64,000 nucleotides of DNA from Escherichia coli (GTDB lineage: Bacteria > Pseudomonadota > Gammaproteobacteria > Enterobacterales > Enterobacteriaceae), in assembly GCF_030384885.1 (NCBI RefSeq), contig NZ_CP128613.1. One strand, 5' to 3'. The notes under the pieces are model-generated. The model was not told the origin of the DNA. It did not search any database and saw only the letters and a list, made by a program, of their open reading frames with translations. Below, in pieces: positions 11,150-37,180 of the stretch. How positions within the stretch are numbered: the stretch's first letter is position 1; each line of letters opens with the position of its first letter. The position numbers and the translations under genes were made by a program.

Positions 11150-11290
11150 GCACCGATGCCTGATAAGACGCTTAATGCGTCTTATCAGGCCTGGATGTCC
11201 CTGCAATATATTGAATTTGCACTATTTGCCAGGCCGGAGAAGGTGTTCACGCAGTATCCGGCATCCGGGCAAGATTGCCTGACGCGTCTG
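11150..11290. repeat. REP/BIME palindromic element cluster in convergent dtpD-phr intergenic region
   Basis: Imperfect palindromes gcctgataagacgcttaatgcgtcttatcaggc and gccggatgcc...gcctgacgcgtc with a central caatatattgaatttg linker. Confidence 0.7.
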
Positions 11291-12709
11291 TTATTTCCCC
11301 TTCCTCGCCGCCTCATACGCTGCCAACGTTCGTACTCTCGCTTCTTTGTGATCGACTATCGGTTGCGGATAATCCAGCGTCACACCTGATTTATCTGCCC
11401 ACTTCCACGGTTCATGCACCGCTTTCCCTGGTACATCGCGCAGCTCCGGTAACCATCGGCGGATAAACTCACCTTCGCGATCAAATTTCTCGCCCTGGGT
11501 TGTCGGGTTAAAAATACGAAAATACGGCGCAGCATCGGTTCCGGTGGAGGCCGCCCATTGCCAGCCACCGTTATTGGCTGCCAAATCACCATCAATCAGC
11601 TGCGACATGAAATATCGCTCGCCTTCGCGCCAGTCGATCAATAAATCTTTCACCAGAAAACTGGCTGTAATCATCCGTAGCCGGTTATGCATCCAGCCAC
11701 TGCTATTAAGCTGACGCATGGCGGCATCAACAATTGGGTATCCCGTTTTGCCTTCCTGCCAGGCCTTTAAATGGGCGGGATTGCTTTGCCACTGTACGCG
11801 ATCGGTCCAGGCAATAAAGGGGCGATGCTTACACAGTGACGGGTGATACGTCATCAAATGACGGTAGAACTCGCGCCAGATCAGCTCATTAAGCCAGACG
11901 CTACCAGCCCCGCCATCCAGCGCTTGCGGCTGTTCCGCCAACAGGCGATGCAGACACTGGCGAGGCGATAACCCGCCCGTTGCCAGGCTGGCGGACAAAC
12001 GACTGGTGCCTTCCACTGCCGGAAAATCTCGTTGTTGCTCATACTCTCCGGCACCGTTCTGGCAAAACTGGCGTAATTGCGCAATCGCCGCTTTTTCTTC
12101 CACCGGGAAATGCGCAGTATCGAAAGACTGACGAGGATAATTCAGCGTAATGGATGGCGCGGGCTCTATCGATCCGCTACTACGAACTTTTGGTGCAGCG
12201 ACGCACTCCGGCCCCCCTTCTCGCAGCCGTTTCAGCCAGGCGTTTTTAAATGGCGTAAAGACTTTGTACATCTCATGATTGCCAGTCATCACCGCCCCCG
12301 GCGGCAGGATCACGCTGTCATCAAATCCTTCACACACCACGTTACGCAGCGTTCTCTCAACCTGCACATCCCGAGCCCGCTCATTCACCTCATACTGATA
12401 GTTATAAAACAGATGGGTAACACGATTTTCCGCGCACACCTGTTTAACTATTTCGACGCTGGCGGCAAAGTCATCCACTTCATGAAACAGCAAAGGAATG
12501 CCTTTTTCCGCCAGCGCGATTTGTAGCCCGTTCAGTTGTGCATTGATAAATTCAGCCTGACGCGGCGACATATTATGCGCCGCCCACTGGCGTGGTGTAG
12601 CGATATACAACGCCAGCACGCGTGCAGACGAATAGCGGCAAGCGGCCGCCAGCGCGAGATTATCATGCAGACGTAAATCCTGGCGAAACCAGACCAGATG
12701 GGTAGTCAT
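11291..12709 (-). CDS. phr: Deoxyribodipyrimidine photolyase
   Basis: 472-aa ORF, photolyase sequence (MTTHLVWFRQDLRLHDNLAL..., FAD-binding C-terminal domain); overlaps ybgA stop. Confidence 0.9.
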   Translation of the reverse strand: MTTHLVWFRQDLRLHDNLALAAACRYSSARVLALYIATPRQWAAHNMSPRQAEFINAQLNGLQIALAEKGIPLLFHEVDDFAASVEIVKQVCAENRVTHLFYNYQYEVNERARDVQVERTLRNVVCEGFDDSVILPPGAVMTGNHEMYKVFTPFKNAWLKRLREGGPECVAAPKVRSSGSIEPAPSITLNYPRQSFDTAHFPVEEKAAIAQLRQFCQNGAGEYEQQRDFPAVEGTSRLSASLATGGLSPRQCLHRLLAEQPQALDGGAGSVWLNELIWREFYRHLMTYHPSLCKHRPFIAWTDRVQWQSNPAHLKAWQEGKTGYPIVDAAMRQLNSSGWMHNRLRMITASFLVKDLLIDWREGERYFMSQLIDGDLAANNGGWQWAASTGTDAAPYFRIFNPTTQGEKFDREGEFIRRWLPELRDVPGKAVHEPWKWADKSGVTLDYPQPIVDHKEARVRTLAAYEAARKGK

Positions 12710-13215
12710 AAAACTCCTGCATGGCGCAAGTTAATCACCCGCGGCCAAAGTTCGAAATAACGCTGCTCTGAAAGCCAGGCGTCAGGATAAAGCGCCATAT
12801 AGTGTTTGATACGCATCAGCGGCGCAAGAAGCGGTTGCTCGCCACGGCGATAACTGTCGATAAGCGCCGCCAGCTGCTGGCGTTCTGTGGAATCAATATG
12901 TGGGCGAAAATATCCCTGAACGTGCATCAAAACATTGGTGTGGTCACGTCGGTTGGCGGGGTGAGAAAGCAAAACAATTACGCGTTGGCGGTACTGGTTG
13001 TAATAGTCATCCAGATTTTGCCACTGGTGAATATCAGCCACAAACGGGCCAAGTTTGCGGTATTCCGGCTGGGAATGAGCCAGAAAGACGAGTTTATAGC
13101 GGCTGTGATAATCGTTGAGCGCCCCGCGCGTTAAGCCTCGCTCTTTAAGACGGTGTAACTCATGCAAAGCAAAAATGCGGATAAGGGTGCTGTCATCAAA
13201 AAGTTGTTGATTCAT
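12706..13215 (-). CDS. ybgA: DUF1722-family protein co-transcribed with photolyase
   Basis: 169-aa ORF immediately upstream of and overlapping phr start. Confidence 0.8.
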   Translation of the reverse strand: MNQQLFDDSTLIRIFALHELHRLKERGLTRGALNDYHSRYKLVFLAHSQPEYRKLGPFVADIHQWQNLDDYYNQYRQRVIVLLSHPANRRDHTNVLMHVQGYFRPHIDSTERQQLAALIDSYRRGEQPLLAPLMRIKHYMALYPDAWLSEQRYFELWPRVINLRHAGVL

Positions 13216-13412
13216 TACTACTCCTGGGCGGTTTACAGGAGTAAGTGTAGACGGCGGTACTGAAAAAACGAAACGAATAAATGATAACAGTAAAAAAATT
13301 CAATTATTCATAATAAATTTCATGGTGGCAAGAAATAGTTTCTTTTCTTCATCGCTCATGGCAGCAACGTTTAACATGTTGTCATCAAAATTATTGATGA
13401 TATTTTTTAATT

Positions 13413-13748
13413 TCAGTAACTGCAAAGGAGAAAAATAGTCACTCCGATGAGATTACTCAATACCAGCAATAGCTCCCCATCATATAAATAGCCCACCATA
13501 AGATTAATCTCTATCATCTCAATTGCTTTTTGTACAGCAAGCGCCGGTAAGATATTCTGACGAAGCATTTTGGCAATATCATTTTCATCCAGTTCATCGG
13601 GTGTTTTATCTAATAAAGAATTATACCAGTTTATTAAACCACTTTTGAAAGCGAACGAATCATATTGCAGGTGATAAATCTGTTTTAGGGTTTCTTTATT
13701 TTTCAATTTATAGTGCCTTTGTTTGCTATAATTTTTCTGAAATAACAT
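13413..13748 (-). CDS. Hypothetical small protein with hydrophobic C-terminus (island ORF 5)
   Basis: 111-aa ORF in AT-rich island; start overlaps stop of upstream ORF (TGATG), indicating translational coupling; no family recognised. Confidence 0.45.
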   Translation of the reverse strand: MLFQKNYSKQRHYKLKNKETLKQIYHLQYDSFAFKSGLINWYNSLLDKTPDELDENDIAKMLRQNILPALAVQKAIEMIEINLMVGYLYDGELLLVLSNLIGVTIFLLCSY

Positions 13749-14215
13749 CAGCGAGTTTGCTCAGGTGCAGGGATGACCGAAATTGTCATGTATTTTTTCA
13801 GTCTGGCTTCTCGTTTCACACCTTTCGGATCTGAACCAAAAGGAAGCGTCAAGCATGGTGAGTCAACGGTTTGGATTGTCCAGAGAGAATCACCAATGAA
13901 TCTGAAATTGATGCTATCCGCTGTAACGGATAATCCCTCAAAACTTCCCGTCGCATACTCATTACCCAAACGTACGGTCTCTTTAACTCCATCGTTAACA
14001 TCGATAAGGACAATTGTCAGTGATTCCTCAAAAATAACGTCATCCGTCAGAAAAAGGATATAACGCTGGTCATTAACCTGAATTGCCGCTTCCAGTATTT
14101 GCCCTGGTACAATAATACCTGTGTTATTGCCATTAAGCACAACGTCAGACTGAGCCTGAGATAAATCAGTCGCTTTGTGAACCTTGACCAACGATATCGA
14201 ATTAACCTGTTGCAT
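13748..14215 (-). CDS. Hypothetical protein (island ORF 4)
   Basis: ORF track gives 13748..14308 from a GTG; I prefer ATG at 14215 (MQQVNSISLV..., 155 aa) because the upstream part is better explained by a separate out-of-frame glycine-zipper ORF ending 2 nt before this ATG. Confidence 0.45.
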   Translation of the reverse strand: MQQVNSISLVKVHKATDLSQAQSDVVLNGNNTGIIVPGQILEAAIQVNDQRYILFLTDDVIFEESLTIVLIDVNDGVKETVRLGNEYATGSFEGLSVTADSINFRFIGDSLWTIQTVDSPCLTLPFGSDPKGVKREARLKKYMTISVIPAPEQTR

Positions 14216-14217
14216 AA

Positions 14218-14358
14218 TCAATTCCACAAGCGCCCCATTTCCCATGCGGCAAGTGCACCGCCGACAAAGCCGCCAATAAGTACGCAAACAGGTGCTCCTG
14301 GACCACACATCAATCCGGTCAACGCACCGCCTGCGACAGCACCGGCAATAATATTCAT
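14218..14358 (-). CDS. 46-aa double glycine-zipper transmembrane micropeptide (island ORF 3)
   Basis: My own translation of the minus strand: MNIIAGAVAGGALTGLMCGPGAPVCVLIGGFVGGALAAWEMGRLWN, stop TGA 2 nt before the next start; two GxxxG-type glycine zippers; not in ORF track (below length cutoff). Confidence 0.4.
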   Translation of the reverse strand: MNIIAGAVAGGALTGLMCGPGAPVCVLIGGFVGGALAAWEMGRLWN

Positions 14359-14541
14359 CCGGGTACGACTGCCAGTGGTTTTAACAGATTTACGCTCACC
14401 GTTACGTATCCTGCCACCACTCAGGTTGCAGACGCGGCAGTCACAGCCTTGACGGTGTTGAAACTAAAGTTCAGGTGATAGTCTGATGTTCATAGTTTGA
14501 GCATTATCCCCTGACAGAATCAAATCAAGCAGTGTCAATGA

Positions 14542-14799
14542 TCACGTGTATATATCATTTAAAGCATTATCAAGCCAATCTTCCATGTTTTTAATTTTAG
14601 CCCGCGCATATAAATCATTCATAACATCCTCATAACTCTGTCCATCATTGACCATACAATTAGCTGTATGAGGCAGAACATGTATAAAATCAGACAATAT
14701 AAAACAAGCCTTTGAATTTCCAGAGTTAGCTGCAATTCTGATATCAATCAATCCTCTGGCAATCAATTTAAGAATAACATCTTGCATTTTAATTTCCAT
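14542..14799 (-). CDS. Hypothetical small cytoplasmic protein, immunity-protein-like (island ORF 2)
   Basis: 85-aa ORF in AT-rich island, co-oriented with neighbours; no family recognised. Confidence 0.45.
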   Translation of the reverse strand: MEIKMQDVILKLIARGLIDIRIAANSGNSKACFILSDFIHVLPHTANCMVNDGQSYEDVMNDLYARAKIKNMEDWLDNALNDIYT

Positions 14800-14881
14800 A
14801 TCATCCAGTTAAATTTCAGTAGTAAATCGTCTATCAAAAAAAGATGAAATTAACATTCATAAATTTATTACAATATGAAAA

Positions 14882-15235
14882 TCAAAAATATACATCATCA
14901 GCTTCTACCGAAAACTCCATGGCTCCTAAGGCACCTAAATCAATACTAAATATAGTATCACTTTCCTTAGCACTCCCAACATAGATAAAATAGCCTAAAT
15001 CTCCGTCTTGACCTATCAAAAAATAGTCAGGTTCCACTTGTTGAATATCATATGTTTCATTTCTTTCAATAAGATCAGAATAGTTATATAAATATAATGT
15101 TTCGTGCTTCTTATTAGTTATTTCATAGGTCTCACTATCTTTAATTTCTTCTATCAAAAAACGTTTATACACTGGAGGAAACTTGATTGACATGTCAAAT
15201 TCAATTTTATTTATATATTCTATAATTTTATTCAT
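14882..15235 (-). CDS. SUKH/SMI1-KNR4-like immunity-type protein (island ORF 1)
   Basis: 117-aa ORF; FPPVYKRFLIEE ... YFLIGQDGDLGYFIYVG resembles the SMI1/KNR4 (SUKH-1) pattern (aromatic/Pro N-terminal motif plus GxDGxGxxxY) seen in polymorphic-toxin immunity proteins; assignment by eye only. Confidence 0.5.
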   Translation of the reverse strand: MNKIIEYINKIEFDMSIKFPPVYKRFLIEEIKDSETYEITNKKHETLYLYNYSDLIERNETYDIQQVEPDYFLIGQDGDLGYFIYVGSAKESDTIFSIDLGALGAMEFSVEADDVYF

Positions 15236-15469
15236 GTTAAGAATACCTGAAAGATTATTTATTGATTATCTTGATGAATATATCTTCACTTTTTATTTTC
15301 ATTTACTCATCGCGGAAATACACATTGCCTTGTAGACAAGCGCTAATAATACGTTATGAACCTGACTTCCGCCAGACAATCAATCTATGAATTCATTACG
15401 CCGTAGTGTTTTAGAAAGACACTTTCTGACCAGATGGTGAACCATATACTACATCGCGCATTATAAAAA

Positions 15470-15505
15470 AACCGCCAGCGTTTCCACTAGCGGTTTTCAA
15501 TGTTT
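15470..15505. terminator. Putative bidirectional hairpin downstream of ybfA
   Basis: aaaaaaaccgccagcgtttccactagcggtttt: short GC stem flanked by A-run and T-run. Confidence 0.4.
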
Positions 15506-15519
15506 TCAAAACTCAGCAA

Positions 15520-15726
15520 TCAGTAAAAATCACCGGTTGCCTTTTCGGCCTGATCCATCCACACCGGCTTATCGCTGGTTTTCGACCAGACGCGATGCAG
15601 GTAGCTGTAAAAGCGGGCGCGGTCTTTCCAGAAAAGCATGAAAGGCAGCGCCAAAACGCCCGCTGCAACCGCATAAGTACGGCGTAAAAAGATAAGCCAT
15701 GCAGGATATTCTCTGTAGAGTTCCAT
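15520..15726 (-). CDS. ybfA: DUF2517-family small protein
   Basis: 68-aa ORF ([35 protein letters not shown]...), divergent from kdpF. Confidence 0.8.
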
Positions 15727-15937
15727 ACTTTTCTCCCCCTTTTGTATCTACCCGGTGAATGGCACCGGAAAAATGAATTTGTTTATCTGATGAAAATAGT
15801 ACCGCCTTTTGTGTAATTTTACTACTCATCCGACCACTTATTTTTGCTTATTGATGGTTTATTTACATTCATCGTGTAATTAAGTTACATGAAAGTTAAA
15901 TTAATACTAAACATTAGTTAAATCATGGCTTTTGCCA

Positions 15938-15956
15938 TTTTTATACTTTTTTTACA
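15938..15956 (+). promoter_or_regulatory. KdpE operator (direct-repeat half sites) in kdpFABC promoter
   Basis: tttttatactttttttaca about 80 bp upstream of kdpF start; matches the described KdpE-binding direct repeat TTTATA-N-TTTACA. Confidence 0.65.
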
Positions 15957-16038
15957 CCCCACCCGCAGATTTTTGCGAAATCTTTGCAGCCAGAATTCTA
16001 CCCTTCCGGTATCACTTTTAGGCCACTGGAGGTGCACT

Positions 16039-16128
16039 GTGAGTGCAGGCGTGATAGCCGGCGTGTTGCTGGTGTTTTTATTACTGGGTTATCTGGTTTA
16101 TGCCCTGATCAATGCGGAGGCGTTCTGA
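16039..16128 (+). CDS. kdpF: K+-transporting ATPase small subunit KdpF
   Basis: GTG-initiated 29-codon ORF ([28 protein letters not shown]) whose stop overlaps the kdpA ATG; embedded in ORF 15925..16128. Confidence 0.85.
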
Positions 16129-17801
16129 TGGCTGCGCAAGGGTTCTTACTGATTGCCACGTTTTTACTGGTGTTAATGGTGCTGGCGCGCCCTTTGGGCA
16201 GTGGGCTGGCGCGGCTGATTAATGATATTCCTCTTCCTGGTACGACGGGCGTTGAGCGCGTACTTTTTCGCGCACTTGGCGTGTCTGACCGTGAGATGAA
16301 CTGGAAGCAGTATCTCTGTGCCATTCTCGGCCTGAACATGCTGGGGCTGGCAGTGCTGTTTTTTATGTTGCTCGGTCAGCACTATCTGCCGCTTAATCCA
16401 CAGCAGTTGCCAGGGCTGTCGTGGGATCTGGCGCTGAATACCGCCGTCAGCTTTGGCACGAATACCAACTGGCAATCTTACAGCGGTGAAACCACGTTGA
16501 GCTATTTCAGCCAGATGGCGGGCTTAACGGTGCAAAACTTTCTTTCTGCCGCCAGCGGGATTGCGGTGATTTTTGCCCTCATTCGTGCATTTACCCGCCA
16601 GAGCATGAGCACACTCGGGAATGCCTGGGTCGATCTGCTACGCATCACGTTATGGGTGCTAGTCCCTGTGGCGTTGTTGATCGCACTGTTTTTTATTCAA
16701 CAAGGTGCGCTGCAAAACTTTCTGCCCTATCAGGCGGTGAATACCGTTGAAGGAGCGCAACAGCTGTTACCCATGGGGCCTGTAGCTTCTCAGGAAGCGA
16801 TCAAGATGCTCGGTACTAACGGCGGTGGCTTCTTTAATGCCAACTCGTCGCATCCGTTTGAAAACCCAACCGCACTGACCAACTTCGTGCAGATGCTGGC
16901 GATTTTCTTGATCCCAACAGCGCTGTGCTTTGCCTTTGGTGAAGTGGCAGGCGATCGCCGCCAGGGGCGCATGTTGCTGTGGGCGATGTCAGTGATTTTT
17001 GTCATCTGCGTAGGCGTGGTGATGTGGGCAGAAGTTCAGGGTAATCCTCATCTGCTGGCGCTGGGTGCGGACAGCAGCATCAATATGGAAGGTAAAGAGA
17101 GCCGTTTCGGCGTGCTGGTCAGTAGCCTGTTTGCGGTCGTGACTACAGCGGCTTCCTGTGGCGCGGTGATTGCGATGCATGATTCGTTTACCGCTCTCGG
17201 CGGCATGGTGCCGATGTGGCTGATGCAAATTGGTGAAGTGGTGTTCGGCGGTGTCGGTTCTGGTCTTTACGGCATGATGCTGTTTGTCCTGCTGGCGGTG
17301 TTTATTGCTGGGCTGATGATTGGTCGTACGCCGGAATATCTGGGTAAAAAAATCGACGTACGCGAGATGAAACTGACCGCACTGGCGATTCTGGTCACTC
17401 CAACGCTGGTACTGATGGGCGCAGCACTGGCGATGATGACCGACGCCGGACGTAGCGCCATGCTCAACCCTGGCCCGCATGGTTTTAGCGAAGTGCTGTA
17501 CGCCGTGTCATCCGCCGCTAACAACAACGGCAGCGCCTTTGCCGGATTAAGCGCCAACTCTCCGTTCTGGAACTGTTTACTGGCGTTCTGCATGTTTGTT
17601 GGTCGCTTCGGGGTGATTATCCCGGTAATGGCAATTGCCGGTTCGCTGGTGAGTAAAAAGAGCCAACCCGCCAGCTCCGGCACGCTGCCAACGCACGGCC
17701 CGCTGTTTGTTGGCCTGTTAATCGGCACCGTGTTGCTGGTTGGCGCACTGACCTTTATCCCTGCCCTGGCGCTTGGTCCGGTGGCGGAATATCTCTCCTG
17801 A
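16128..17801 (+). CDS. kdpA: K+-transporting ATPase subunit A (channel subunit)
   Basis: ORF 15984..17801; start at [12 protein letters not shown] (557 aa), overlapping kdpF stop. Confidence 0.9.
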
Positions 17802-17823
17802 TGATATTGAGTGAGCACTGAAT

Positions 17824-19872
17824 ATGAGTCGTAAACAACTGGCGCTATTCGAACCAACACTTGTCGTTCAGGCGCTGAAAGAAGCGGTGAAAAAATTAAA
17901 CCCGCAGGCGCAATGGCGCAATCCGGTGATGTTTATCGTCTGGATCGGCAGTCTGCTGACCACCTGTATTAGCATCGCGATGGCAAGCGGTGCGATGCCT
18001 GGCAATGCGCTGTTTAGCGCGGCCATTAGCGGCTGGCTGTGGGTCACCGTACTGTTCGCTAATTTCGCCGAGGCGCTGGCAGAAGGCCGCAGTAAAGCGC
18101 AGGCCAACAGTCTGAAAGGGGTGAAAAAAACTGCCTTTGCCCGCAAGCTGCGTGAGCCGAAATATGGCGCTGCGGCGGACAAAGTTCCTGCCGATCAACT
18201 GCGTAAAGGCGATATCGTGCTGGTAGAAGCTGGCGATATTATCCCCTGCGATGGTGAAGTCATTGAAGGGGGCGCATCGGTCGATGAAAGCGCCATCACC
18301 GGGGAATCGGCACCGGTGATCCGTGAATCCGGCGGCGATTTTGCCTCCGTCACCGGCGGCACGCGTATTCTTTCTGACTGGCTGGTGATTGAGTGCAGCG
18401 TTAACCCCGGTGAGACATTTCTGGATCGGATGATCGCGATGGTGGAAGGCGCGCAGCGACGTAAAACGCCGAACGAGATTGCCCTGACCATTCTGCTGAT
18501 TGCCCTGACTATCGTCTTTTTACTGGCAACCGCCACGCTGTGGCCGTTTTCCGCGTGGGGCGGTAATGCAGTCAGTGTAACGGTACTGGTGGCGCTGCTG
18601 GTCTGTCTGATTCCAACCACCATCGGTGGCCTGTTGTCAGCGATCGGCGTCGCCGGGATGAGTCGGATGCTGGGCGCGAATGTGATTGCCACCAGCGGGC
18701 GTGCAGTTGAAGCGGCGGGCGACGTGGACGTCCTGCTGCTGGATAAAACCGGTACCATCACCCTCGGTAACCGTCAGGCATCAGAGTTTATCCCTGCGCA
18801 GGGCGTAGAGGAAAAAACGCTGGCCGACGCAGCGCAACTGGCTTCGCTGGCCGACGAAACGCCGGAAGGCCGCAGTATTGTGATCCTCGCCAAGCAGCGT
18901 TTTAACCTGCGCGAGCGCGATGTGCAGTCGCTTCACGCCACTTTTGTACCGTTTACTGCGCAAAGTCGAATGAGCGGGATCAATATCGATAACCGTATGA
19001 TCCGTAAAGGTTCTGTCGATGCCATTCGCCGCCATGTTGAGGCTAACGGTGGTCACTTCCCTGCCGATATCGATCAAAAAGTCGATCAGGTTGCGCGTCA
19101 GGGAGCCACGCCGCTGGTGGTGGTGGAAGGTTCTCGTGTGCTGGGCGTTATTGCGCTGAAAGATATCGTCAAAGGCGGTATTAAAGAGCGCTTCGCCCAA
19201 CTGCGCAAAATGGGCATTAAAACGGTGATGATTACTGGCGATAACCGTCTGACTGCCGCCGCCATTGCCGCGGAAGCGGGCGTCGATGATTTCCTCGCCG
19301 AAGCGACACCGGAGGCCAAGCTGGCGTTAATTCGTCAGTATCAGGCGGAAGGCCGTTTGGTGGCGATGACCGGCGACGGCACCAACGATGCTCCGGCGCT
19401 GGCGCAGGCAGATGTCGCGGTGGCGATGAACTCTGGTACTCAGGCGGCGAAAGAAGCGGGCAATATGGTGGATCTCGACTCTAACCCGACCAAGTTGATC
19501 GAGGTGGTGCATATTGGCAAACAGATGCTGATGACCCGTGGCTCGCTGACCACCTTCAGCATTGCCAACGATGTGGCGAAATACTTCGCCATTATTCCGG
19601 CGGCGTTCGCGGCAACATATCCGCAGTTAAATGCGCTGAACATCATGCGCCTGCATTCACCCGACTCCGCCATCCTCAGTGCGGTGATTTTCAACGCCTT
19701 GATTATCGTCTTTTTAATTCCCCTGGCGTTAAAAGGCGTGAGTTATAAACCGCTTACCGCTTCTGCCATGTTGCGCCGTAACTTATGGATTTACGGTCTG
19801 GGTGGGCTGCTGGTGCCGTTTATTGGTATCAAAGTCATTGATTTACTGCTGACCGTTTGCGGTCTGGTGTGA
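17824..19872 (+). CDS. kdpB: K+-transporting P-type ATPase catalytic subunit B
   Basis: 682-aa ORF with P-type ATPase motifs ([19 protein letters not shown]). Confidence 0.95.
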
Positions 19873-19880
19873 GGTTTACC

Positions 19881-28023: not shown

Positions 28024-28052
28024 AAGGGCGATTGAATGATCGCCCTTTCTGT
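28024..28052 (+). terminator. Rho-independent terminator of speF-potE
   Basis: gggcgattgaatgatcgccc hairpin followed by T-run, directly after potE stop. Confidence 0.7.
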
Positions 28053-28090
28053 TTGTTGACAAAGAGTTCGTTATTTATGCCGCATCCGGC

Positions 28091-28355: not shown

Positions 28356-29006
28356 ATGCGTGAAGTGAGTCAGTTAGTAAATACGGAAGATTCAGCCTGG
28401 CCAATAATCCAGAATTGGTTAAAAGAAGCCACAAACCATGCCGAACTCTTACCGGTTAATAAAGATTTAGCCGAAACCGCACTTTATCAATTACAGGTTA
28501 CAACAAAATCACCGATGGGTGCGCTTGTCTATGGCTCCGGAGGTCTGCTGATTGATAACGGTTGGTTACGCATAGCAGGCTCTGGTCACCCCCGGTTACC
28601 ACGAGATCCAGCAAGTTGGACACAACGCCCTGAATTCGCAAGCGTGCGGGCTTTACCCATCGCCGATGATGTCGCAGGGGGAATTTTTGCTCTTAATGGT
28701 GGCGATCTTGGGGAAGATACTGGCTGCGTTTATTATTTTGCGCCAGATACGCTGAATTGGGAAAGTCTGGAGGTTGGATATTCTGAGTTTCTTCAGTGGG
28801 CATTATCCGGTGATTTAGATACCTTCTATGAAAATGTACGCTGGCCGCAATGGCAAGAAGACGTAATAAAATTATCGGCAACGGAAGCCTTCACTTTCTA
28901 CCCTTTCTTATGGGTACAAAGTGAAGAAGCAAGAACAAGAAAAGTTATTTCGCTTACTGAACTCTGGGAAATGCAGTATCAAATGAAAGAAACAATCACG
29001 CAATAA
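28356..29006 (+). CDS. ybfG: DUF2625-family protein
   Basis: ORF 28248..29006; start at ATG 28356 preceded by strong SD aaggag (spacing ~9); appears intact here. Confidence 0.7.
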   Translation: MREVSQLVNTEDSAWPIIQNWLKEATNHAELLPVNKDLAETALYQLQVTTKSPMGALVYGSGGLLIDNGWLRIAGSGHPRLPRDPASWTQRPEFASVRALPIADDVAGGIFALNGGDLGEDTGCVYYFAPDTLNWESLEVGYSEFLQWALSGDLDTFYENVRWPQWQEDVIKLSATEAFTFYPFLWVQSEEARTRKVISLTELWEMQYQMKETITQ

Positions 29007-29046
29007 GACATGTTCAGGTCCGGGTTTCATTCCCGGACTCGCTATT

Positions 29047-29541
29047 TTAATGTGTGTTTATCGCTTTCAATTCTTGCTGGCAATTTTCTGACTGACAGCG
29101 TCGCAACTCAATAATCCCGACATGCATCATCGAGCCAAAAAATCCGCTTTCGCTGACATAATCCTCATTAACTATCGGTCGAGTGCCGGGCTTACCCTGG
29201 CAAATCCTCATAAAAAATGAGGTGTAGCATTGCCATTCAGGATTTAAACCGGTCTTTTCTTGTGCTGACATATCATGAAGATAAGTAAGTTCTTTTTCGT
29301 TCCCGCCTGACAACTGCCAGCGGCGGGTATTATCAGGTAAGTTATCGCCACGGCAATTTGTCTTACACCGGGAAGGCGCAATATTTACCGCAATGCTACC
29401 CGTTAATCCTCTGGTTTTATCTTTAGGGGTCAGTAACCAGTCACCAGCTAATGATGATTGTTCAGGTTGGGCGCATGCTGTCAGTAGTAGTGTGGCGGTA
29501 ATTAATGCCACTCTGACGACCAGACTCCTTTTGGTCTTCAT
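29047..29541 (-). CDS. ybfP: Lipoprotein
   Basis: ORF 29047..29592; start at MKTKRSLVV... with lipobox LLTAC (164 aa). Confidence 0.75.
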   Translation of the reverse strand: MKTKRSLVVRVALITATLLLTACAQPEQSSLAGDWLLTPKDKTRGLTGSIAVNIAPSRCKTNCRGDNLPDNTRRWQLSGGNEKELTYLHDMSAQEKTGLNPEWQCYTSFFMRICQGKPGTRPIVNEDYVSESGFFGSMMHVGIIELRRCQSENCQQELKAINTH

Positions 29542-29582
29542 TTTGAATTCCCTTGAGCTATTCAGTTTGTTGGCAAAGTGCT

Positions 29583-29690
29583 CGTTGTTCATGCCGGATG
29601 CGGCGTGAACGCCTTATCCGGCCTACAAAATAGGGCAAATTCAATATATTGCACCATCTTCCCAAGCCTGATAAGCGTAGCGCATCAGGC
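29583..29690. repeat. REP/BIME element pair with RIP-like linker
   Basis: gccggatgcggcgtgaacgccttatccggcctacaaaa...caaattcaatatat...gcctgataagcgtagcgcatcaggc; same architecture as 37010..37100. Confidence 0.75.
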
Positions 29691-29700
29691 AGTCATAAGT

Positions 29701-29735
29701 AAAAAAGGGCGATCTTCTGACCGCCCTTTTTCTTA
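29701..29735. terminator. Bidirectional hairpin terminator downstream of pgm
   Basis: aaaaaagggcg...cgcccttttt: GC stem with A-run and T-run on either side. Confidence 0.65.
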
Positions 29736-29745
29736 TTAAATGTGT

Positions 29746-31386
29746 TTACGCGTTTTTCAGAACTTCGCTAACAATCTCAACCGCTTCTTTCTCGATCTGC
29801 TTGCGATGTTCTTCACCGAGGAAGCTTTCGCAGTAGATTTTGTATGCGTCTTCCGTGCCTGACGGACGCGCGGCGAACCAGCCGTTGTCAGTCATCACTT
29901 TCAGACCGCCAATAGAAGCACCGTTGCCCGGTGCCGCCGTCAGGCGCGCGGTGATCGGGTCACCTGCCAGGGTGCTGGCGCTCACCATTTCCGGAGACAG
30001 CTTAGACAGCGCCGCTTTTTGTGCGGAAGTCGCAGCTGCCTGCAAACGGTTATAGCTCGGCGCACCAAAGCGTTTTGCCAGTTCGTTGTAGTGTTCCTGC
30101 GGGTTCTTACCGGTGACCGCGGTGATTTCTGCCGCCAGCAGACACATAATGATACCGTCTTTATCGGTGGACCACGGCGTGCCGTCGAAACGCAGGAAGG
30201 AAGCCCCTGCGCTCTCTTCGCCGCCAAAGCCGAAGCTGCCGTCGAACAGACCATCAACAAACCATTTGAAGCCTACCGGGACTTCTACCAGCTTACGGCC
30301 CAAATCATTGACCACACGGTCGATCATCGCAGATGAAACCAGCGTTTTACCGACAGCAACATCTTTGCCCCACTGCGGACGATGCTGGAACAGGTAGTTG
30401 ATCGCCACCGCCAGGTAGTGGTTCGGATTCATCAAACCTGCCGGAGTGACGATACCGTGACGGTCATAATCCGGGTCGTTAGCAAACGCCAGATCGAACT
30501 TATCACGCAGTGCCAGCAGACCCGCCATCGCACACTCGGAGGAGCAGTCCATACGGATCGCGCCGTCTTTATCGAGGTGCATAAAGCGGAAGGTTTGATC
30601 GACCTGATCGTTAACGATGGTCAGGTTGAGGTTGTAATACTCGCCAATGCGCTTCCAGTATTCAATACCGGAACCGCCCAGCGGATCAACGCCCAGCGTC
30701 AGGCCCGCTTTCTGAATCGCCGCCATATCAACGATATCGGCCAGACCTTCCACAAACGGCTGCACCAGATCCTGCTCTTTCACATGACCGGATGCCATCG
30801 CTTCGTCGAGGGAGATACGCTTCACACCTTTCAGGCCATCGGCCATCAGTGCGTTGGCCCTGTCTTCCACCACTTTGGTGACGTTGGTATCAGCCGGGCC
30901 ACCATTTGGCGGATTGTACTTGATACCACCATCTTCTGGCGGGTTATGGGACGGTGTAATCACGATACCGTCTGCCAGCGGGCCACCTTTTTTATTGTGA
31001 ACCAGGATGGCATTGGAAACGGCAGGCGTCGGAGTGAAGCCATTGTTTTCCTGCACAATAACATCTACGCCGTTCGCTGCCAGCACTTCCAGTACGGAAA
31101 TGAACGCAGGCTCGGACAGGGCGTGAGTATCTTTACCCACATAGCAAGGGCCAGTGATGCCGTTTTTCGCACGTTCTTCAGCAATTGCCTGAGCGATCGC
31201 CAGAATATGCGGCTCGTTAAAGCTGCGGCGCGCTGCACTGCCACGGTGACCGGAAGTACCGAATTTCACCGCGTGCTCCGCATTCCCTGCTTCTGGTTTC
31301 AGTACATAATATTGCGCCGTCAGTTGGGCGACGTTAATCAAATCACTCTGTTGTGCAGGTTGGCCTGCACGATTGTGGATTGCCAT
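29746..31386 (-). CDS. pgm: Phosphoglucomutase
   Basis: ORF 29746..31437; start at [12 protein letters not shown] (546 aa); phosphoserine loop TPSHNP present. Confidence 0.95.
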
Positions 31387-31411
31387 TGCTTTGTCCTTTG
31401 TCTGCAACGTT

Positions 31412-31957
31412 TTAGATAGTTCCGCAAACCTTCTCAATCAATTCCGCCGGGAATTGCATCGACTGCATGATGTGTTCGATCATGCTGCATTTACGGCCGG
31501 TGTTGGTGTTGGTGATCACCCAATACGGCGTGCCTGGCACATGTTTCGGCTTGGTCTGATTACCATTTTTCAGCAGCGTTTGTTCATCTGCTGCAAAGTA
31601 AACGCGTGTACGACCGTGCAACGATTCCGTGGCCTCGGCAAACGCCTGGGCGTCAAGAGAATATAGTGTAGACAACAGCAGCATGAAGCGATTGACCGCT
31701 CGCTTTTGCTCTGCGTATTCGTCTGAAAGCAAAAGTTCACGCATTGCGCGAACCTTGTCTTTAATCGTTTTGACCGGCTTCGCTTCGACGATAGCAGGTG
31801 ACGCAACGCGAACCTCTTTCGTCACCGGAGCAGCAGGCTGTGATGCGGCGGAAAATTTCAACATACGCCGTAAAATGTCGGATGCGCTCTCGCCGATATG
31901 CTTAGTGTGGCTGGCAATATAGCTGTAGAGTTCATCATCAACTTCAATCGTTTTCAT
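31412..31957 (-). CDS. seqA: Negative modulator of replication initiation SeqA
   Basis: ORF 31412..32035; start at [18 protein letters not shown] (181 aa). Confidence 0.9.
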
Positions 31958-32141
31958 CTTAATCCAGTGCAGTGTCTTAGCTGAATACAAGTCGCCAGGA
32001 GTATATGAATAAATCCCGGCAGCGGATAGCGTCAAGCCTGGCTTGCAGAAAAACTCGGATTAAACCTTATTTGTTGCAGCCCTGTGGCACAATGGTCAAC
32101 ATAATACCCTAACCCGACAACGCGAAAAAAAGAACTTTGCC

Positions 32142-32906
32142 ATGAAATTGAATATCCGCGCGCAAACTGCACAAAACCAGCACAATAATTCTCCCATCGT
32201 TCTTGTCCATGGTCTGTTTGGCAGCCTCGACAACCTTGGCGTACTGGCTCGCGATCTGGTAAACGATCACAATATCATCCAGGTTGATATGCGTAACCAC
32301 GGTCTTTCACCGAGAGATCCGGTGATGAATTACCCGGCGATGGCGCAGGATCTTGTTGATACCCTGGATGCACTGCAGATCGATAAGGCAACATTTATTG
32401 GACACTCAATGGGCGGTAAAGCGGTGATGGCACTGACTGCACTGGCCCCCGATCGCATCGATAAACTGGTGGCGATTGATATTGCGCCGGTCGACTATCA
32501 CGTACGCCGTCATGATGAGATTTTCGCGGCCATCAACGCAGTCAGTGAATCAGACGCACAAACACGCCAGCAAGCAGCGGCAATAATGCGCCAGCATCTT
32601 AATGAAGAAGGGGTGATTCAGTTTCTGTTGAAATCTTTTGTTGACGGGGAGTGGCGCTTTAACGTGCCAGTATTGTGGGATCAGTATCCGCATATTGTGG
32701 GGTGGGAGAAAATCCCGGCATGGGATCACCCTGCCCTGTTTATCCCTGGCGGCAATTCTCCGTATGTTAGCGAGCAGTATCGTGATGATTTACTAACACA
32801 ATTTCCACAGGCACGGGCGCATGTGATTGCAGGCGCGGGTCACTGGGTCCATGCTGAAAAACCGGATGCGGTACTACGCGCCATCCGTCGCTATCTCAAT
32901 GATTAA
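32142..32906 (+). CDS. ybfF: Alpha/beta-hydrolase esterase
   Basis: 254-aa ORF with GHSMGG nucleophile elbow. Confidence 0.85.
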   Translation: MKLNIRAQTAQNQHNNSPIVLVHGLFGSLDNLGVLARDLVNDHNIIQVDMRNHGLSPRDPVMNYPAMAQDLVDTLDALQIDKATFIGHSMGGKAVMALTALAPDRIDKLVAIDIAPVDYHVRRHDEIFAAINAVSESDAQTRQQAAAIMRQHLNEEGVIQFLLKSFVDGEWRFNVPVLWDQYPHIVGWEKIPAWDHPALFIPGGNSPYVSEQYRDDLLTQFPQARAHVIAGAGHWVHAEKPDAVLRAIRRYLND

Positions 32907-32909
32907 CGT

Positions 32910-32929
32910 AACTGATTAAAAACCCAGCG
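32910..32929. promoter_or_regulatory. Candidate LexA (SOS) box upstream of ybfE
   Basis: aaCTGattaaaaaccCAGcg = CTG-N10-CAG with AT-rich spacer; ybfE is reported as LexA-regulated. Confidence 0.45.
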
Positions 32930-33045
32930 TCCGCGTCGCTTTCCGCGCGTGGGCGTTGGCGTGACTCATCGCGCTGATGTATTATGGCGCGCTATCCATC
33001 CGGGCAGAGGCCTGGCTGATTGTTTCCCCCGAAGTCACCAAGATC

Positions 33046-33339
33046 ATGGCCAAAGAACAAACGGACCGTACGACATTAGATCTGTTCGCGCACGAGCGTC
33101 GACCGGGACGACCGAAAACTAATCCGCTTTCGCGCGATGAACAGCTGCGTATTAATAAACGCAACCAGCTAAAACGCGACAAAGTACGTGGCCTTAAGCG
33201 TGTCGAACTGAAGCTGAACGCGGAAGCTGTCGAGGCGCTGAACGAGCTGGCGGAATCGCGCAATATGAGCCGTAGCGAACTGATCGAAGAGATGTTAATG
33301 CAGCAACTGGCGGCGCTGCGTAGTCAGGGCATCGTTTAA
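33046..33339 (+). CDS. ybfE: CopG-family putative DNA-binding protein (SOS-regulated)
   Basis: ORF 32977..33339; start at [14 protein letters not shown] (97 aa). Confidence 0.75.
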
Positions 33340-33478
33340 ATTTCCACTTTCATGTAGCACAGTGTGCAGTCCTGCTCGTTTGCTGATTCCGCAAGACTGC
33401 CTGTTCTGCTATGATTGCCTTTATCCGTGGGCAATTTTCCACCCCCATTTCAATAAGTTTCAAGAGGTTATTTCACTC

Positions 33479-34009
33479 ATGGCTATCACTGGCATCTTTT
33501 TCGGCAGCGACACCGGTAATACCGAAAATATCGCAAAAATGATTCAAAAACAGCTTGGTAAAGACGTTGCCGATGTCCATGACATTGCAAAAAGCAGCAA
33601 AGAAGATCTGGAAGCATATGACATTCTGCTGCTGGGCATCCCAACCTGGTATTACGGCGAAGCGCAGTGTGACTGGGATGACTTCTTCCCGACTCTCGAA
33701 GAGATTGATTTCAATGGCAAACTGGTTGCGCTGTTTGGTTGTGGCGACCAGGAAGATTACGCTGAATACTTCTGTGACGCATTGGGCACCATCCGCGACA
33801 TCATTGAACCGCGCGGCGCAACTATCGTTGGTCACTGGCCAACTGCGGGCTACCACTTCGAAGCGTCAAAAGGTCTGGCAGATGACGACCACTTTGTCGG
33901 ACTGGCTATCGACGAAGATCGTCAGCCGGAACTGACCGCTGAACGTGTAGAAAAATGGGTTAAACAGATTTCTGAAGAATTGCATCTCGACGAAATTCTC
34001 AATGCCTGA
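33479..34009 (+). CDS. fldA: Flavodoxin 1
   Basis: ORF 33362..34009; start at [22 protein letters not shown] (176 aa), classic long-chain flavodoxin FMN-binding loop. Confidence 0.95.
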
Positions 34010-34214
34010 TGTGATGCGGCGTAGACTCATGTCTACGCCGTATTAATAGATAATGCCAATCAAAATAATTGCTACAAATTTGTAACTTTTGCTGTTGTAC
34101 CTGTACAATGTCCCGGTGTTCAAGTGGCCTTGCCGTTGTAAATGTAAGCTGTGCCACGTTTTTATTAACAATATTTGCCAGGGACTTGTGGTTTTCATTT
34201 AGGCGTGGCAATTC

Positions 34215-34233
34215 TATAATGATACGCATTATC
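34215..34233. promoter_or_regulatory. Fur box overlapping fur/uof promoter (autoregulation)
   Basis: tataatgatacgcattatc matches the 19-bp Fur consensus GATAATGATAATCATTATC at about 16/19 positions. Confidence 0.65.
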
Positions 34234-34305
34234 TCAAGAGCAAATTCTGTCACTTCTCCTAATGAAGTGAACCGCTTAGTAACAGGACAGATTCCGCATG
34301 ACTGA
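34219..34305 (+). CDS. uof: fur upstream leader ORF
   Basis: 28-codon ORF MIRIISRANSVTSPNEVNRLVTGQIPHD whose stop overlaps the fur start; embedded in ORF 34069..34305. Confidence 0.75.
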   Translation: MIRIISRANSVTSPNEVNRLVTGQIPHD

Positions 34306-34744
34306 TAACAATACCGCCCTAAAGAAAGCTGGCCTGAAAGTAACGCTTCCTCGTTTAAAAATCCTGGAAGTTCTTCAGGAGCCGGACAACCATCACGTCA
34401 GTGCGGAAGATTTATACAAACGTCTGATCGATATGGGTGAAGAAATTGGTCTGGCTACGGTATATCGCGTACTGAACCAGTTCGACGACGCTGGTATCGT
34501 CACCCGCCACAATTTTGAAGGCGGTAAATCCGTATTTGAACTGACACAGCAACATCACCACGATCACCTGATCTGCCTCGACTGCGGCAAGGTTATCGAA
34601 TTTAGTGATGATTCCATCGAAGCGCGTCAGCGTGAAATTGCCGCAAAACATGGCATTCGCCTGACTAACCACAGTCTCTATCTTTACGGTCACTGTGCCG
34701 AAGGCGATTGCCGCGAAGATGAGCACGCGCACGAAGGCAAATAA
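34298..34744 (+). CDS. fur: Ferric uptake regulator
   Basis: 148-aa ORF MTDNNTALKKAGLKVTLPRLKILEVL... with C-terminal His/Cys-rich metal site. Confidence 0.95.
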   Translation: MTDNNTALKKAGLKVTLPRLKILEVLQEPDNHHVSAEDLYKRLIDMGEEIGLATVYRVLNQFDDAGIVTRHNFEGGKSVFELTQQHHHDHLICLDCGKVIEFSDDSIEARQREIAAKHGIRLTNHSLYLYGHCAEGDCREDEHAHEGK

Positions 34745-34760
34745 GCCAGCCTGAACGAGA

Positions 34761-34788
34761 AAAGCCAACCTGCGGGTTGGCTTTTTTA
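34761..34788 (+). terminator. Rho-independent terminator of fur
   Basis: aagccaacctgcgggttggctttttt hairpin plus T-run. Confidence 0.7.
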
Positions 34789-34827
34789 TGCAAGGGAAAT
34801 AAGAAAAGCGAGAGTTACAGCTCTCAC

Positions 34828-35154
34828 TTATTTGTTATTACTGCGAATTTCCTGCCAGACTTTATCACAATCGGTTTTCACCGCCTGATCATTTCCGGTT
34901 TGCGTCGCACGCAGACACTGCTGATAATCCAGTACGCGTACACTTTCCTGCTCGGCAAATTGCTGATGTTGTTTCTCTTTCTTCAGCACGTTTAACACGC
35001 TCTGACAGGCTTCAATTTTTTCCGGCGAACCTTGCGCGGTGTTGATACAGGCGCTGTAAGCTTCTTTCAGATGGCTGTCTTCCTGTGGCGCGGTGGATTG
35101 TGCACAAGCCACCAGCCCCGATGCCATCATGGCGATGAGAATCAGTTTTTTCAT
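34828..35154 (-). CDS. chiQ: Chitosugar-induced lipoprotein
   Basis: 108-aa ORF with lipobox (LVACAQ), immediately downstream of chiP. Confidence 0.8.
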   Translation of the reverse strand: MKKLILIAMMASGLVACAQSTAPQEDSHLKEAYSACINTAQGSPEKIEACQSVLNVLKKEKQHQQFAEQESVRVLDYQQCLRATQTGNDQAVKTDCDKVWQEIRSNNK

Positions 35155-35203
35155 TGCAAATTCCTCAAACGTGCGGCAGGCACAAAACCTGCCGCGTCGG
35201 GCA

Positions 35204-36610
35204 TCAGAAGATGGTGAATGGTGCGATTACCATGAATTTCACGTCGCGCTCATCCTGGAAGATGTTACCGTAACCACCGCCCCAGCTTGGGATGTCGGAG
35301 TGGTTGTCGTATTCGGTGAAGTGCAGTTTGAACATCGTGCCTTTGGCGCGACCGTCCTGAATGGTGTAGACCGCATCCAGGCTGTAGGCAGACTCTTCAA
35401 TAGTCCGGTTTTTGTCGTAGTACGCATCCGGATTGCTCTGCCAGGTCGCAGGTTTAGCATCCCATGCGTAAACGTAGGAAGCGCCGATGGCGAAGCCTGG
35501 AAGATTCCAGTTTTTCAGGTCATACATCGCACCGAAGAAGACCGCTTTTTCGCCGTTAGCGTTGAAGTCGGAACGGTTATCCCACCAGATATCCAGGCGA
35601 CCGTTCGAGGAAGCGTAGGTTGGAGTCATACGTTGCAGGAAGTATCCCTGCTGACCGTCGGCTTTAACCCAGGTGCCTTCCAGACGCAAATCCACTACGT
35701 CAGCCGCCCGGTAACCAAAGGTCAACGCTTGCAGCCAGGCAGTGCCGTCGTAAAGGTCGTTGACGCTGCGATCGTCAACTTTATCGCGCGTACCGTAGAA
35801 CTGGTAGCTGGTGGTTAACGGGCTACCGGCGATATCAAATTTATAGCTGGCTTTGGCAAAATACTGATCAATATACCCTTCCGCCTGACCAAACGCCGCT
35901 TCCAGTACGAAGTTATTTTTGAAGTCGTACTTCGCCCCAAGGGAGTGTAGATAATCAACTTTGGTGGTTTTATCGTTCTGATAAAACTCATCCATTTCCA
36001 GATGCCACGGCGCTTTATATTCGTTGGTCCACATGTAGGAGAAACTCAACGCACCAGCATCGCCGTAATCAAAATTCGCCCCCGCTTCCGCCCCCTGATA
36101 AGTACCCGGCATAAAGCTCCAGTGCGGCGCTAACAGCGTCTGACCGGTTGGCTGAATATAACCTGCCCGCGCCCACACCGGACCGTATTTAAATTTGGCC
36201 GCTGCTTTATACAGGCTTATACCGCTTTTATCGCCGGACCAGTCTTCGTCATAGGCTTTATTGCTTTTTGAAAACGCGATTTCGTTCGGGTGAGAACTGT
36301 CGCCGTTTTCCGCCATTTCAATCGCCGTAAACGCAGCAATATCAAGGCCGAACATATCAGCAGCATAACCAGACTGAAAATCGAGGTTGGCATTCCAGGT
36401 GGAGTGAGAAAGGTTGGTTTTGTATTTGTCGCCGTCGGTAACGTCTTTACGGTCGCGTTCACGCTGCCAGTAATAGATACCGCCGGTTAAGGTTGAATCG
36501 TCGATGAATCCTTCGGCGCGAGCCTCCGGCATTGCCATAAAGCCCGACATTGCTGTAACACCGGCGATAGCCAGCGCCAGCGTACTACGTTTGCCACTAA
36601 ACGTACGCAT
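35204..36610 (-). CDS. chiP: Chitoporin (OprD-family outer-membrane porin)
   Basis: 468-aa ORF with signal peptide and C-terminal aromatic residue (F) typical of beta-barrel OMPs. Confidence 0.85.
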
Positions 36611-37009
36611 GGGTTAATCCTCTTTGACGTATAAATTGCTGCACCAAAGGTGAACAGCGAAAAAAAATAAAAATTAAAAAAGTAGCGTTGAGAAAAGTCT
36701 CGCTGACTACAGGAACAGACTATTTTTCGCGACGCGAATTATCAATCTCTTTCTGTAACCAGAATGTAAGAACATGAGCAACCGCACATATTTTGATGAT
36801 TTTTGTTACAAGGCTTAAGTTTGCAGTTGAAAGGCTTGCAGAAGAATAAAAGCGTGAATTTCCAGCAAGATGAAAACGGTTACATTTTATTTAATTATGG
36901 TTTGTGATTTTAAATTTGTTTTATGGATAAATTGCGAAGCGGAATTAATTCGCGAAGAAAAGCAGAAAAAAACGCCGCAGAGCGCGGCGTTTTGGATTGT
37001 TTGCATGTT

Positions 37010-37180
37010 TCATGCCGGATGCGGCGTGAACGCCTTATCCGGCCTACAAAAGCACGCAAATTCAATATATGGCAGAGATCATGTAGGCCTGATAAGCGTA
37101 GCGCATCAGGCAATTTAGCGTTTGAAACTGTTTCTATGTTTCTTGCCGGATGTGGCGTAAATGCCTCACCCGGCCTGGTA
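37010..37180. repeat. REP/BIME cluster (three REP units) between chiP and glnS
   Basis: gccggatgcggcgtgaacgccttatccggcctac ... gcctgataagcgtagcgcatcaggc ... gccggatgtggcgtaaatgcctcacccggcc. Confidence 0.75.

Follow-up and report, generated by a model that had tools for sequence, protein, structure and literature searches.

Three REP-linker-REP elements in the dtpD/phr, ybfP/pgm and chiP/glnS spacers of Escherichia coli and their relation to the RIP/BIME-1 repeats

A 64-kb stretch of Escherichia coli DNA (contig NZ_CP128613.1; hereafter the window) contains three intergenic elements of one build, located in the dtpD/phr, ybfP/pgm and chiP/glnS spacers. Each is composed of a Y-type repetitive extragenic palindromic (REP) sequence and an inverted Z-type REP, which flank a long linker, L, with a shared core. 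We consider it very probable that all three are members of the RIP/RIB/BIME-1 intergenic repeats of E. coli (BIME, bacterial interspersed mosaic element), with the mechanism proposed below as the best explanation. RIP is said to stand for repetitive IHF-binding palindromic element, a term of Oppenheim et al. in 1993, and RIB reportedly for reiterative ihf BIME, a term of Boccard and Prentki in 1993. The class is already known, having been described in 1991-93, and the finding is an ordinary one. Its importance beyond correct annotation is small, as catalogues of RIP/BIME-1 elements in E. coli go back to the early 1990s.

REP-linker-REP architecture at three spacers

The window has three exact occurrences of the 14-mer CAAATTCAATATAT, at 11206-11219 on the minus strand and at 29636-29649 and 37057-37070 on the plus strand. 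No fourth match is present in the 64 kb even with up to two mismatches allowed (0.55 expected). The invariant stretch in the three-way alignment comprises 15 nt, GCAAATTCAATATAT, followed by K-GCA, and has conserved REP palindromes on both sides. It is longer than the 12 bp below which the initial annotation would have given up its claim of a nearly identical core. The core GCAAATTCAATATATKGCA is common to all three linkers.

The REP signature scan places one Y-type and one inverted Z-type REP around each core, separated by a linker of 42 bp at dtpD/phr and of 43 bp at ybfP/pgm and chiP/glnS. Over REP-linker-REP, the three copies are 77-87% identical in pairs and 78-95% identical to an external family consensus (89% for ybfP/pgm and 95% for chiP/glnS). 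Their similarity is far beyond chance. Hence, the REP-linker-REP architecture first suggested for the three spacers is confirmed by core scan, alignment, REP scan and external profile alike. The coordinates originally assigned are right to within a few bases, and the range given with them also takes in a Y-like REP at 37145-37174. Each locus has a single Y-L-Z unit and no tandem array, and chiP/glnS amounts to about 1.3 units owing to this extra Y-like REP (Y').

The external profile was an nhmmer profile of 93 copies from other genomes, none of them from the window, and the 64-kb window was its target. It returns three full copies:

36996-37127: chiP/glnS, E=5.9e-46
29557-29699: ybfP/pgm, E=8.3e-45
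11155-11264: dtpD/phr, E=6.6e-22

No fourth full-length copy was found over the 64 kb; the weaker matches are the Y' REP, solitary REPs and one fragment.

The dtpD/phr element is made up as follows:

11158-11190, plus strand: Z2-type REP (REP scan; typed by comparison with REP325 of E. coli K-12)
11191-11232, minus strand: L linker of 42 bp, with the 19-mer core GCAAATTCAATATATTGCA at 11202-11220 (minus strand)
11204-11216, minus strand: IHF-like 13-mer ATTCAATATATTG, matching the consensus with one mismatch
11233-11262, minus strand: degenerate Y-type REP, GCCGGATACTGCGTGAACACCTTCTCCGGC on the minus strand (REP scan; within the nhmmer match 11155-11264, E=6.6e-22)

The ybfP/pgm element and the adjoining terminator are:

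29557-29592, plus strand: left-flank family motif, cagtttgttggcaaagtgctcgttgttcat (nhmmer match from profile position 10; family consensus)
29593-29622, plus strand: canonical Y REP (REP scan), with CTAC next to it at 29623-29626
29623-29665, plus strand: L linker of 43 bp, with the 19-mer core at 29635-29653
29639-29651, plus strand: IHF-like 13-mer ATTCAATATATTG, one mismatch, and then CACC, in common with the lambda H' site
29666-29690, plus strand: Z1 REP, GCCTGATAAGCGTAGCGCATCAGGC (REP scan)
29701-29733, minus strand: pgm intrinsic terminator, GGGCGGUC-AGAA-GAUCGCCC and then U6, between pgm and the RIP (read from the sequence)

The chiP/glnS element and its surroundings are:

36969-36993, minus strand: glnS intrinsic terminator, an 11-pair stem followed by TTTCTGCTTT, downstream of all three REPs (terminator scan)
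37014-37043, plus strand: canonical Y REP followed by CTAC (REP scan; within the nhmmer match 36996-37127, E=5.9e-46)
37044-37086, plus strand: L linker of 43 bp, with the 19-mer core at 37056-37074
37060-37072, plus strand: IHF-like 13-mer ATTCAATATATGG, with TTG changed to TGG and two mismatches; K-12 has ACTCAATATATTG
37087-37111, plus strand: Z1 REP (REP scan), preceded by GTAG at 37083-37086
37145-37174, plus strand: extra Y-like REP (Y'), in direct orientation with the Y of the RIP and 131 bp apart from it (REP scan, nhmmer)

In this class, GTAG or CTAC stands at the foot of each REP on the side of the linker, and the three copies differ in these tetranucleotides. Both CTAC and GTAG are kept at chiP/glnS. 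At ybfP/pgm, CTAC is kept and the GTAG beside Z1 has degenerated to CCAA; the right-flank motif there is 11 bp shorter than in K-12, and the Y REP ends 51 bp upstream of the ybfP ATG. Neither tetranucleotide is canonical at dtpD/phr, where CTGG on the Z2 side stands for CTAC and CCAG on the Y side for GTAG. The Z2 REP of this copy forms a 14-bp palindrome without mismatches around a 5-nt loop, GCCTGATAAGACGC TTAAT GCGTCTTATCAGGC.

Family membership and relation to known repeats

We scanned one genome per species with the core query GCAAATTCAATATATNGCA and obtained at least 100 stretches, so that species counts are lower bounds. About 85 of the listed stretches belong to Pseudocitrobacter or to Escherichia, the latter represented by E. 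albertii, E. whittamii, two unnamed species and divergent E. coli, and 15 are bare chance matches in unrelated taxa, without surrounding REPs. In 76 of the 90 REP-flanked cores among the matches listed, a Y REP precedes the core and the short Z REP GCCTGATAAGCGTAGCGCATCAGGC follows it; linker length is 42-43 bp in 76 of 78, with a mode of 43 bp (63 of 78). Outside the REPs, the family consensus has conserved, roughly inverted motifs, ...CAGATTGTTGACAAAGTGCGCTTTGTTCAT-[Y]-CTACAAAATCATGCAAATTCAATATATTGCAGAAATCGTGTAG-[Z]-AATTTTGCGTTTGTCATCAGTCTCA. E. whittamii has the exact core at 21 or more loci.

In the scheme of Ton-Hoang et al. (PMC3333891), BIME-1 is composed of z1 and y with a long, well-conserved linker L and a frequent IHF site. 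BIME-2 consists of tandem z2 and y units with short linkers, and chimeras, L with Z2 included, are termed atypical BIMEs (PMC3333891). REP325 of K-12 has been labelled Y-l-Z2 (Qian et al., PMC4550694). Its Z REP, as we read it from the sequence, has a long loop, GCCTGATAAGACGCGCAAGCGTCGCATCAGGC; hence the short-loop Z that accompanies L is Z1. A Y REP with an inverted Z1 is found at ybfP/pgm and chiP/glnS, and by their sequences these two elements are classed as canonical BIME-1 (RIP/RIB), Y-L-Z1. The partner at dtpD/phr is a long-loop Z2 instead of Z1, likewise in K-12 and Escherichia sp. E1V33. Pairing of L with a long-loop Z is rare, being seen in 2-3 of 90 family copies among the matches listed. 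Judged by its REP types, the dtpD/phr copy is Y-L-Z2, a BIME-1/BIME-2 chimera under the PMC3333891 classification that is RIP-like in architecture. The initial annotation had likened all three loci to the IHF-site RIP class of BIMEs. As to class this stands, the Y-L-Z order agreeing with the 76 family copies and with the PMC3333891 definition, but the Z2 of dtpD/phr departs from it.

With BIME-1/RIP/RIB the elements share the Y REP, the long conserved L with a putative IHF-type site, the inverted Z1, and their occurrence as single extragenic units at 3' ends of transcription units. The differences lie in the Z2 and the missing GTAG/CTAC of dtpD/phr, the TGG for TTG in the IHF site and the additional Y' REP of chiP/glnS, and the CCAA for GTAG and shortened right flank of ybfP/pgm. 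BIME-2 and atypical BIMEs (K-12 REP325, yjdM-yjdN) likewise have alternating inverted Y and Z REPs, and dtpD/phr has the Z2 type in common with them. BIME-2, however, has short linkers (S, l, r, s), tandem arrays and preferred gyrase sites, whereas the elements in the window are single units with a long L; at all three loci the linkers are of L type, 42-43 bp in length, without tandem repetition. Similar to the REPINs or REP doublets of Pseudomonas, they are non-autonomous, multi-copy, intergenic units of two inverted REPs and a spacer, associated with a domesticated IS200/IS605-like Y1 transposase (RAYT). The REP sequences of the two groups are unrelated, and a conserved linker with an IHF site is not described for REPINs. 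Correia elements, which are miniature inverted-repeat transposable elements (MITEs) of Neisseria, are also small, intergenic and inverted-repeat, with a central IHF consensus and frequent co-transcription at gene ends (PMC3184786). They differ in their unrelated sequence and termini, their TA target duplications and their functional promoters.

Several observations on the wider family were made in passing. Pseudocitrobacter faecalis, P. vendiensis and a metagenome-assembled genome (MAG) carry many near-identical RIPs, which share the L core and Z1 and contain GTAAAC in the Y loop, so the RIP family is not confined to Escherichia. In Escherichia sp. MOD1-EC7003, full Y-L-Z1 units form tandem arrays (periods 107, 162 and 115 bp), including one locus with at least eight copies; these would count as atypical BIMEs, BIME-1 being described as single-copy. 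Canonical RIPs also appear in tiny contigs of Desulfosporosinus sp. OT (262 bp) and Methylobacterium frigidaeris (261 bp) and in a Bacteroides MAG contig, and E. coli contamination is probably the source of all of these. Within the window, three solitary REP-like palindromes lack an L linker: 48898-48929, after the tRNA cluster and before ubiF; 55943-55972, between lnt and gltI; and 62327-62356, between the convergent hscC and djlC. A RIP fragment at 28045-28090, consisting of the left-flank motif and a collapsed Y REP, directly follows the potE terminator (28026-28047).

Proposed action and alternative readings

Gene annotation was taken from the near-identical record NZ_CP027579.1 (strain 2013C-4282, 1903135-1967134; 8 mismatches over 64 kb). 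The genes that border the three elements are:

9661-11142, plus strand: dtpD
11291-12709, minus strand: phrB, convergent with dtpD
29047-29541, minus strand: ybfP-like gene, downstream of pgm
29746-31386, minus strand: pgm
35204-36610, minus strand: chiP, downstream of glnS
37191-38855, minus strand: glnS

All three elements are extragenic and lie downstream of the stop codon of dtpD and phrB, of pgm, or of glnS. The ybfP/pgm element follows pgm on the 3' side and lies 5' of ybfP; the chiP/glnS element follows glnS on the 3' side and lies upstream of chiP. By the annotation of all three loci, their earlier description as situated between convergent or 3'-adjacent genes is correct.

The order along the glnS transcript is Y', Z1, L, Y and then the terminator. 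As the terminator is downstream of all the REPs, the chiP/glnS RIP is placed by its sequence inside the 3' untranslated region (3'UTR) of glnS. This arrangement, with the RIP between stop codon and intrinsic terminator, appears typical of the family, because the terminators flanking the copies point mostly outward. Specifically, we counted terminator-like hairpins just outside 88 family copies from other genomes (background 3.3%) and found 24 outward on the Z side and 14 on the Y side versus 3 and 3 inward. The title of the paper by Boccard and Prentki is reportedly in agreement with a placement of RIPs before terminators. The ybfP/pgm RIP, going by the terminator located between the pgm stop codon and the element, is outside the pgm mRNA. 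The terminator scanner missed this hairpin, probably because the stem is lengthened by runs of A and T that use up the tail. The terminator is kept beside pgm in ATCC 11775, a strain without the RIP. In the 148-bp convergent dtpD/phr spacer, nearly all of which is filled by the RIP, the terminator scanner detected no intrinsic terminator. REP hairpins dominate the predicted RNA folds (z = -2.5 to -4.8), and no T run was found after any REP hairpin of the three elements.

Read from Y to Z, the linker sequence is ATTCAA-tata-TTG, one mismatch from WATCAANNNNTTR. The number of mismatches to WATCAANNNNTTR is one at dtpD/phr, one at ybfP/pgm and two at chiP/glnS. The IHF consensus is WATCARXXXXTTR, and the lambda H' site is ttgctTATCAAtttgTTGcacc (PMC2709558). 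The linker site is in register with lambda H', and the ybfP/pgm copy also continues TTGCACC. In composites without the exact core, which provide a non-circular sample, TTG is 90-95% conserved and the third N position only 43%. A motif scan for IHF had been proposed as a check of the class, and its outcome is divided: the core is within one mismatch of the consensus at two loci, but the chiP/glnS copy has two mismatches and the match rate is near that of chance. We therefore dropped the consensus scan as independent evidence, and the case for IHF binding rests on family membership and the literature. In vitro binding of IHF to the class was reported in 1993 by Boccard & Prentki and by Oppenheim et al. 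(cited in PMC3333891, PMC2817692 and PMC3184786); binding of gyrase and Pol I, and the use of REPs as insertion sequence (IS) targets, have been reported as well (PMC3333891, PMC2817692, PMC3184786). By analogy with the class, IHF should bind all three linkers, the TGG variant at chiP/glnS probably more weakly.

The mechanism that we favour operates at two levels. On DNA, IHF would bind the L linker at ATTCAAnnnnTTG and bend it between the two REPs. On RNA, transcribed REP stem-loops would block 3'->5' exonucleases, thereby setting and stabilising the mRNA 3' end; such action would take place in the glnS 3'UTR and at the terminator-less dtpD and phr transcript ends. REP stem-loops are known to protect 3' ends, and 24% of Rho-dependent termini are at REPs (PMC6061677). 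The ybfP/pgm copy, behind the pgm terminator, would most likely have a DNA-level role only, or none. The elements themselves would be non-autonomous repeats that spread, and are lost through REP-REP recombination, under the transposase TnpA_REP (RAYT). The initial annotation had considered the three loci probable mRNA stabilisers or insulators. A stabiliser role is plausible for the glnS copy because the element precedes the terminator, and for the dtpD/phr copy because there is no intrinsic terminator there; it seems unlikely for the ybfP/pgm copy since the terminator hairpin of pgm itself lies between gene and element. The insulator idea is that of Moulin et al. 2005 (cited in PMC3333891).

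A number of observations weigh against this account. The match to the IHF consensus is not significant alone, with 72 matches at up to one mismatch in the window versus 57 ± 7.5 expected, and in the chiP/glnS copy the strongly conserved TTG is altered by T->G. With its Z2 partner and lost GTAG, the dtpD/phr copy is not a strict BIME-1, and the ybfP/pgm copy falls outside the pgm transcript. Moreover, many E. coli genomes are without each element (at least about 1,190 at glnS/chiP), so any host function at the three sites is dispensable.

The last point is also what one would expect if the elements were selfish or neutral non-autonomous repeats, driven by RAYT/TnpA_REP and REP-REP recombination without a host function at the three sites, and if the IHF site and the hairpins belonged to the element's own biology. 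We regard this as a serious possibility, though one short of an even chance. Aside from the natural element-less alleles at all three loci, it is favoured by decay at functionally important positions (GTAG lost, TTG changed to TGG, Y stem degraded), by the MITE-like inverted-repeat outer flanks of the canonical element, by the many copies per genome (the E. whittamii loci above) and by the published proposal that BIMEs are non-autonomous transposable elements (PMC2817692). However, the L core and TTG are strongly conserved across species and genera, the placement just upstream of outward-pointing terminators is non-random, and protein-binding and mRNA-protection roles have been published for the class. 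The selfish reading is also compatible with the two-level mechanism, and the two are not mutually exclusive. It is unlikely that the main role is termination or attenuation, with the REP hairpins serving as Rho-dependent or bidirectional terminators and IHF being irrelevant. The convergent dtpD/phr spacer, nearly all element and without an intrinsic terminator, would fit such a role, and attenuation and facilitated Rho-dependent termination have been described for the class (cited in PMC2817692 and PMC4550694). But pgm and glnS each have a separate canonical intrinsic terminator, the REP hairpins lack U tracts, Dar & Sorek (PMC6061677) favour 3'-end protection over termination at such stem-loops, and the conserved 43-bp linker would be left unexplained.

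Two further readings concern the products of the loci. That the elements are templates for HU-binding nucleoid-associated RNAs (naRNAs) of the REP325 type, or for other 3'UTR-derived RNAs, and not DNA-level IHF sites, we consider very improbable. The Y-l-Z2 units of REP325 do yield HU-binding naRNAs, and most REPs are transcribed (PMC4550694); REPs occur in >50% of small RNAs (sRNAs) according to RepRanger, and the glnS copy is within a 3'UTR. On the other side, the Rfam scan gave no family matching the three loci, and naRNA units have a short l linker and Z2, compared with L and Z1. There is next to no chance that a protein-coding gene at 36870-37118 (plus strand) includes the chiP/glnS element. 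An 82-codon open reading frame (ORF) does exist there, and PGAP annotates it as 'hypothetical protein' WP_077627102.1, but it spans the glnS terminator together with the Y, L and Z1 repeats. Its product has no Pfam family, the best hit (E=0.27) being below the cut-off, and short-allele strains are without most of the ORF. The product is a translated multi-copy repeat, in that a 451-bp query spanning the ORF had at least 40 matches per genome; these matches reflect any long REP match, and we did not use them as a RIP copy number. We rejected the coding reading on account of the repeat overlap, the lack of a Pfam family and the short alleles, and the ORF is most likely spurious and repeat-derived. 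The three spacers are to be labelled as repeat elements, as opposed to the PGAP 'hypothetical protein' at 36870-37118. REP/RIP repeat features are not annotated in the K-12 RefSeq record.

Strain variation and window context

K-12 has an element at all three loci, and within each spacer it is the element that diverges most. All three loci are polymorphic for presence and absence across about 5,400 complete E. coli genomes. Matches with at least 80% coverage were obtained for dtpD/phr in 1,981 of 5,422 genomes and for pgm in 2,084 of 5,425, with the short alleles checked in few strains only. The dtpD/phr short allele in the two strains examined, CFT073 and D6, is a 41-bp spacer with a single perfect-palindrome REP, whose sequence includes the phrB stop codon. 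The glnS/chiP allele of about 1,190 genomes is 131 bp shorter and retains only Y' (checked in D7 and DA33137); the two direct Y repeats are likewise 131 bp apart. In ATCC 11775, potE and pgm are 56 bp apart and the whole 1.7-kb ybfI'-ybfG-ybfP-RIP block is absent, and Nissle 1917 and an O157:H7 strain have the same truncated pgm match. Because the dtpD/phr and pgm elements occur in other Escherichia species, the comparison suggests that the short alleles are deletions. Deletion-type behaviour is described for BIMEs in the older literature. RIP elements account for local sequence hypervariability and indel polymorphism between strains, and the natural alleles with and without the element, along with the TTG->TGG variant, offer ready comparisons for IHF binding or mRNA 3'-end protection.

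Two side observations belong to these loci. Strain 09A19CPO009 has an IS3 element of the IS1397 family inserted in the single REP of the short dtpD/phr spacer, in keeping with the REP-targeting known for IS1397. The 1.7-kb block is bracketed by the potE and pgm terminators, which have AAAAAAGGGCGAT...CGCCCTTT in common.

The only mildly unusual point in the window is the rare, heavily altered haplotype of the dtpD/phr spacer. It is 86% identical to K-12, with 24 differences in about 149 bp, and the flanking gene ends are nearly identical. Across the spacer (11143-11290), no more than about 27-36 of about 5,400 genomes reach an identity of at least 95%. Compared with K-12, the 5' arm of Z2 has changed from GATGCG to GATAAG, which yields the perfect 14-bp palindrome, and on the Y side GTAG has become CCAG, now complementary to the CTGG on the Z2 side. 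These clustered multi-nucleotide changes, which follow the hairpin structure, look like hairpin-templated mutation, and we propose, tentatively and with the balance against it, that the haplotype may record quasipalindrome template switching within and between the BIME arms. If so, template-switch changes would erase asymmetries needed by TnpA_REP, and RIP elements would be natural reporters of template-switch mutagenesis and of REP-doublet immobilisation. Given the loss of GTAG and of the stem mismatch, the dtpD/phr copy is probably an immobile fossil. Gene conversion from elsewhere, with tracts of at least about 28-35 nt, was ruled out as a source of the haplotype, which has a single place in its own genome.

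The K-12 counterpart of the window runs from about 752 kb to about 688 kb in reverse orientation. At 13413-15235, from ybgA to ybfA, a short block replaces the roughly 10-kb rhsC/ybfD region of K-12; it contains a gene for a contact-dependent inhibition (CDI) immunity protein, along with small hypothetical genes and a fragment of IS630. The Rfam scan of the window also gave two ordinary, expected results, namely the sroC sRNA in the gltI-gltJ spacer (57198-57360) and seven tRNAs in a Met-Leu-Gln-Gln-Met-Gln-Gln cluster (48107-48807).

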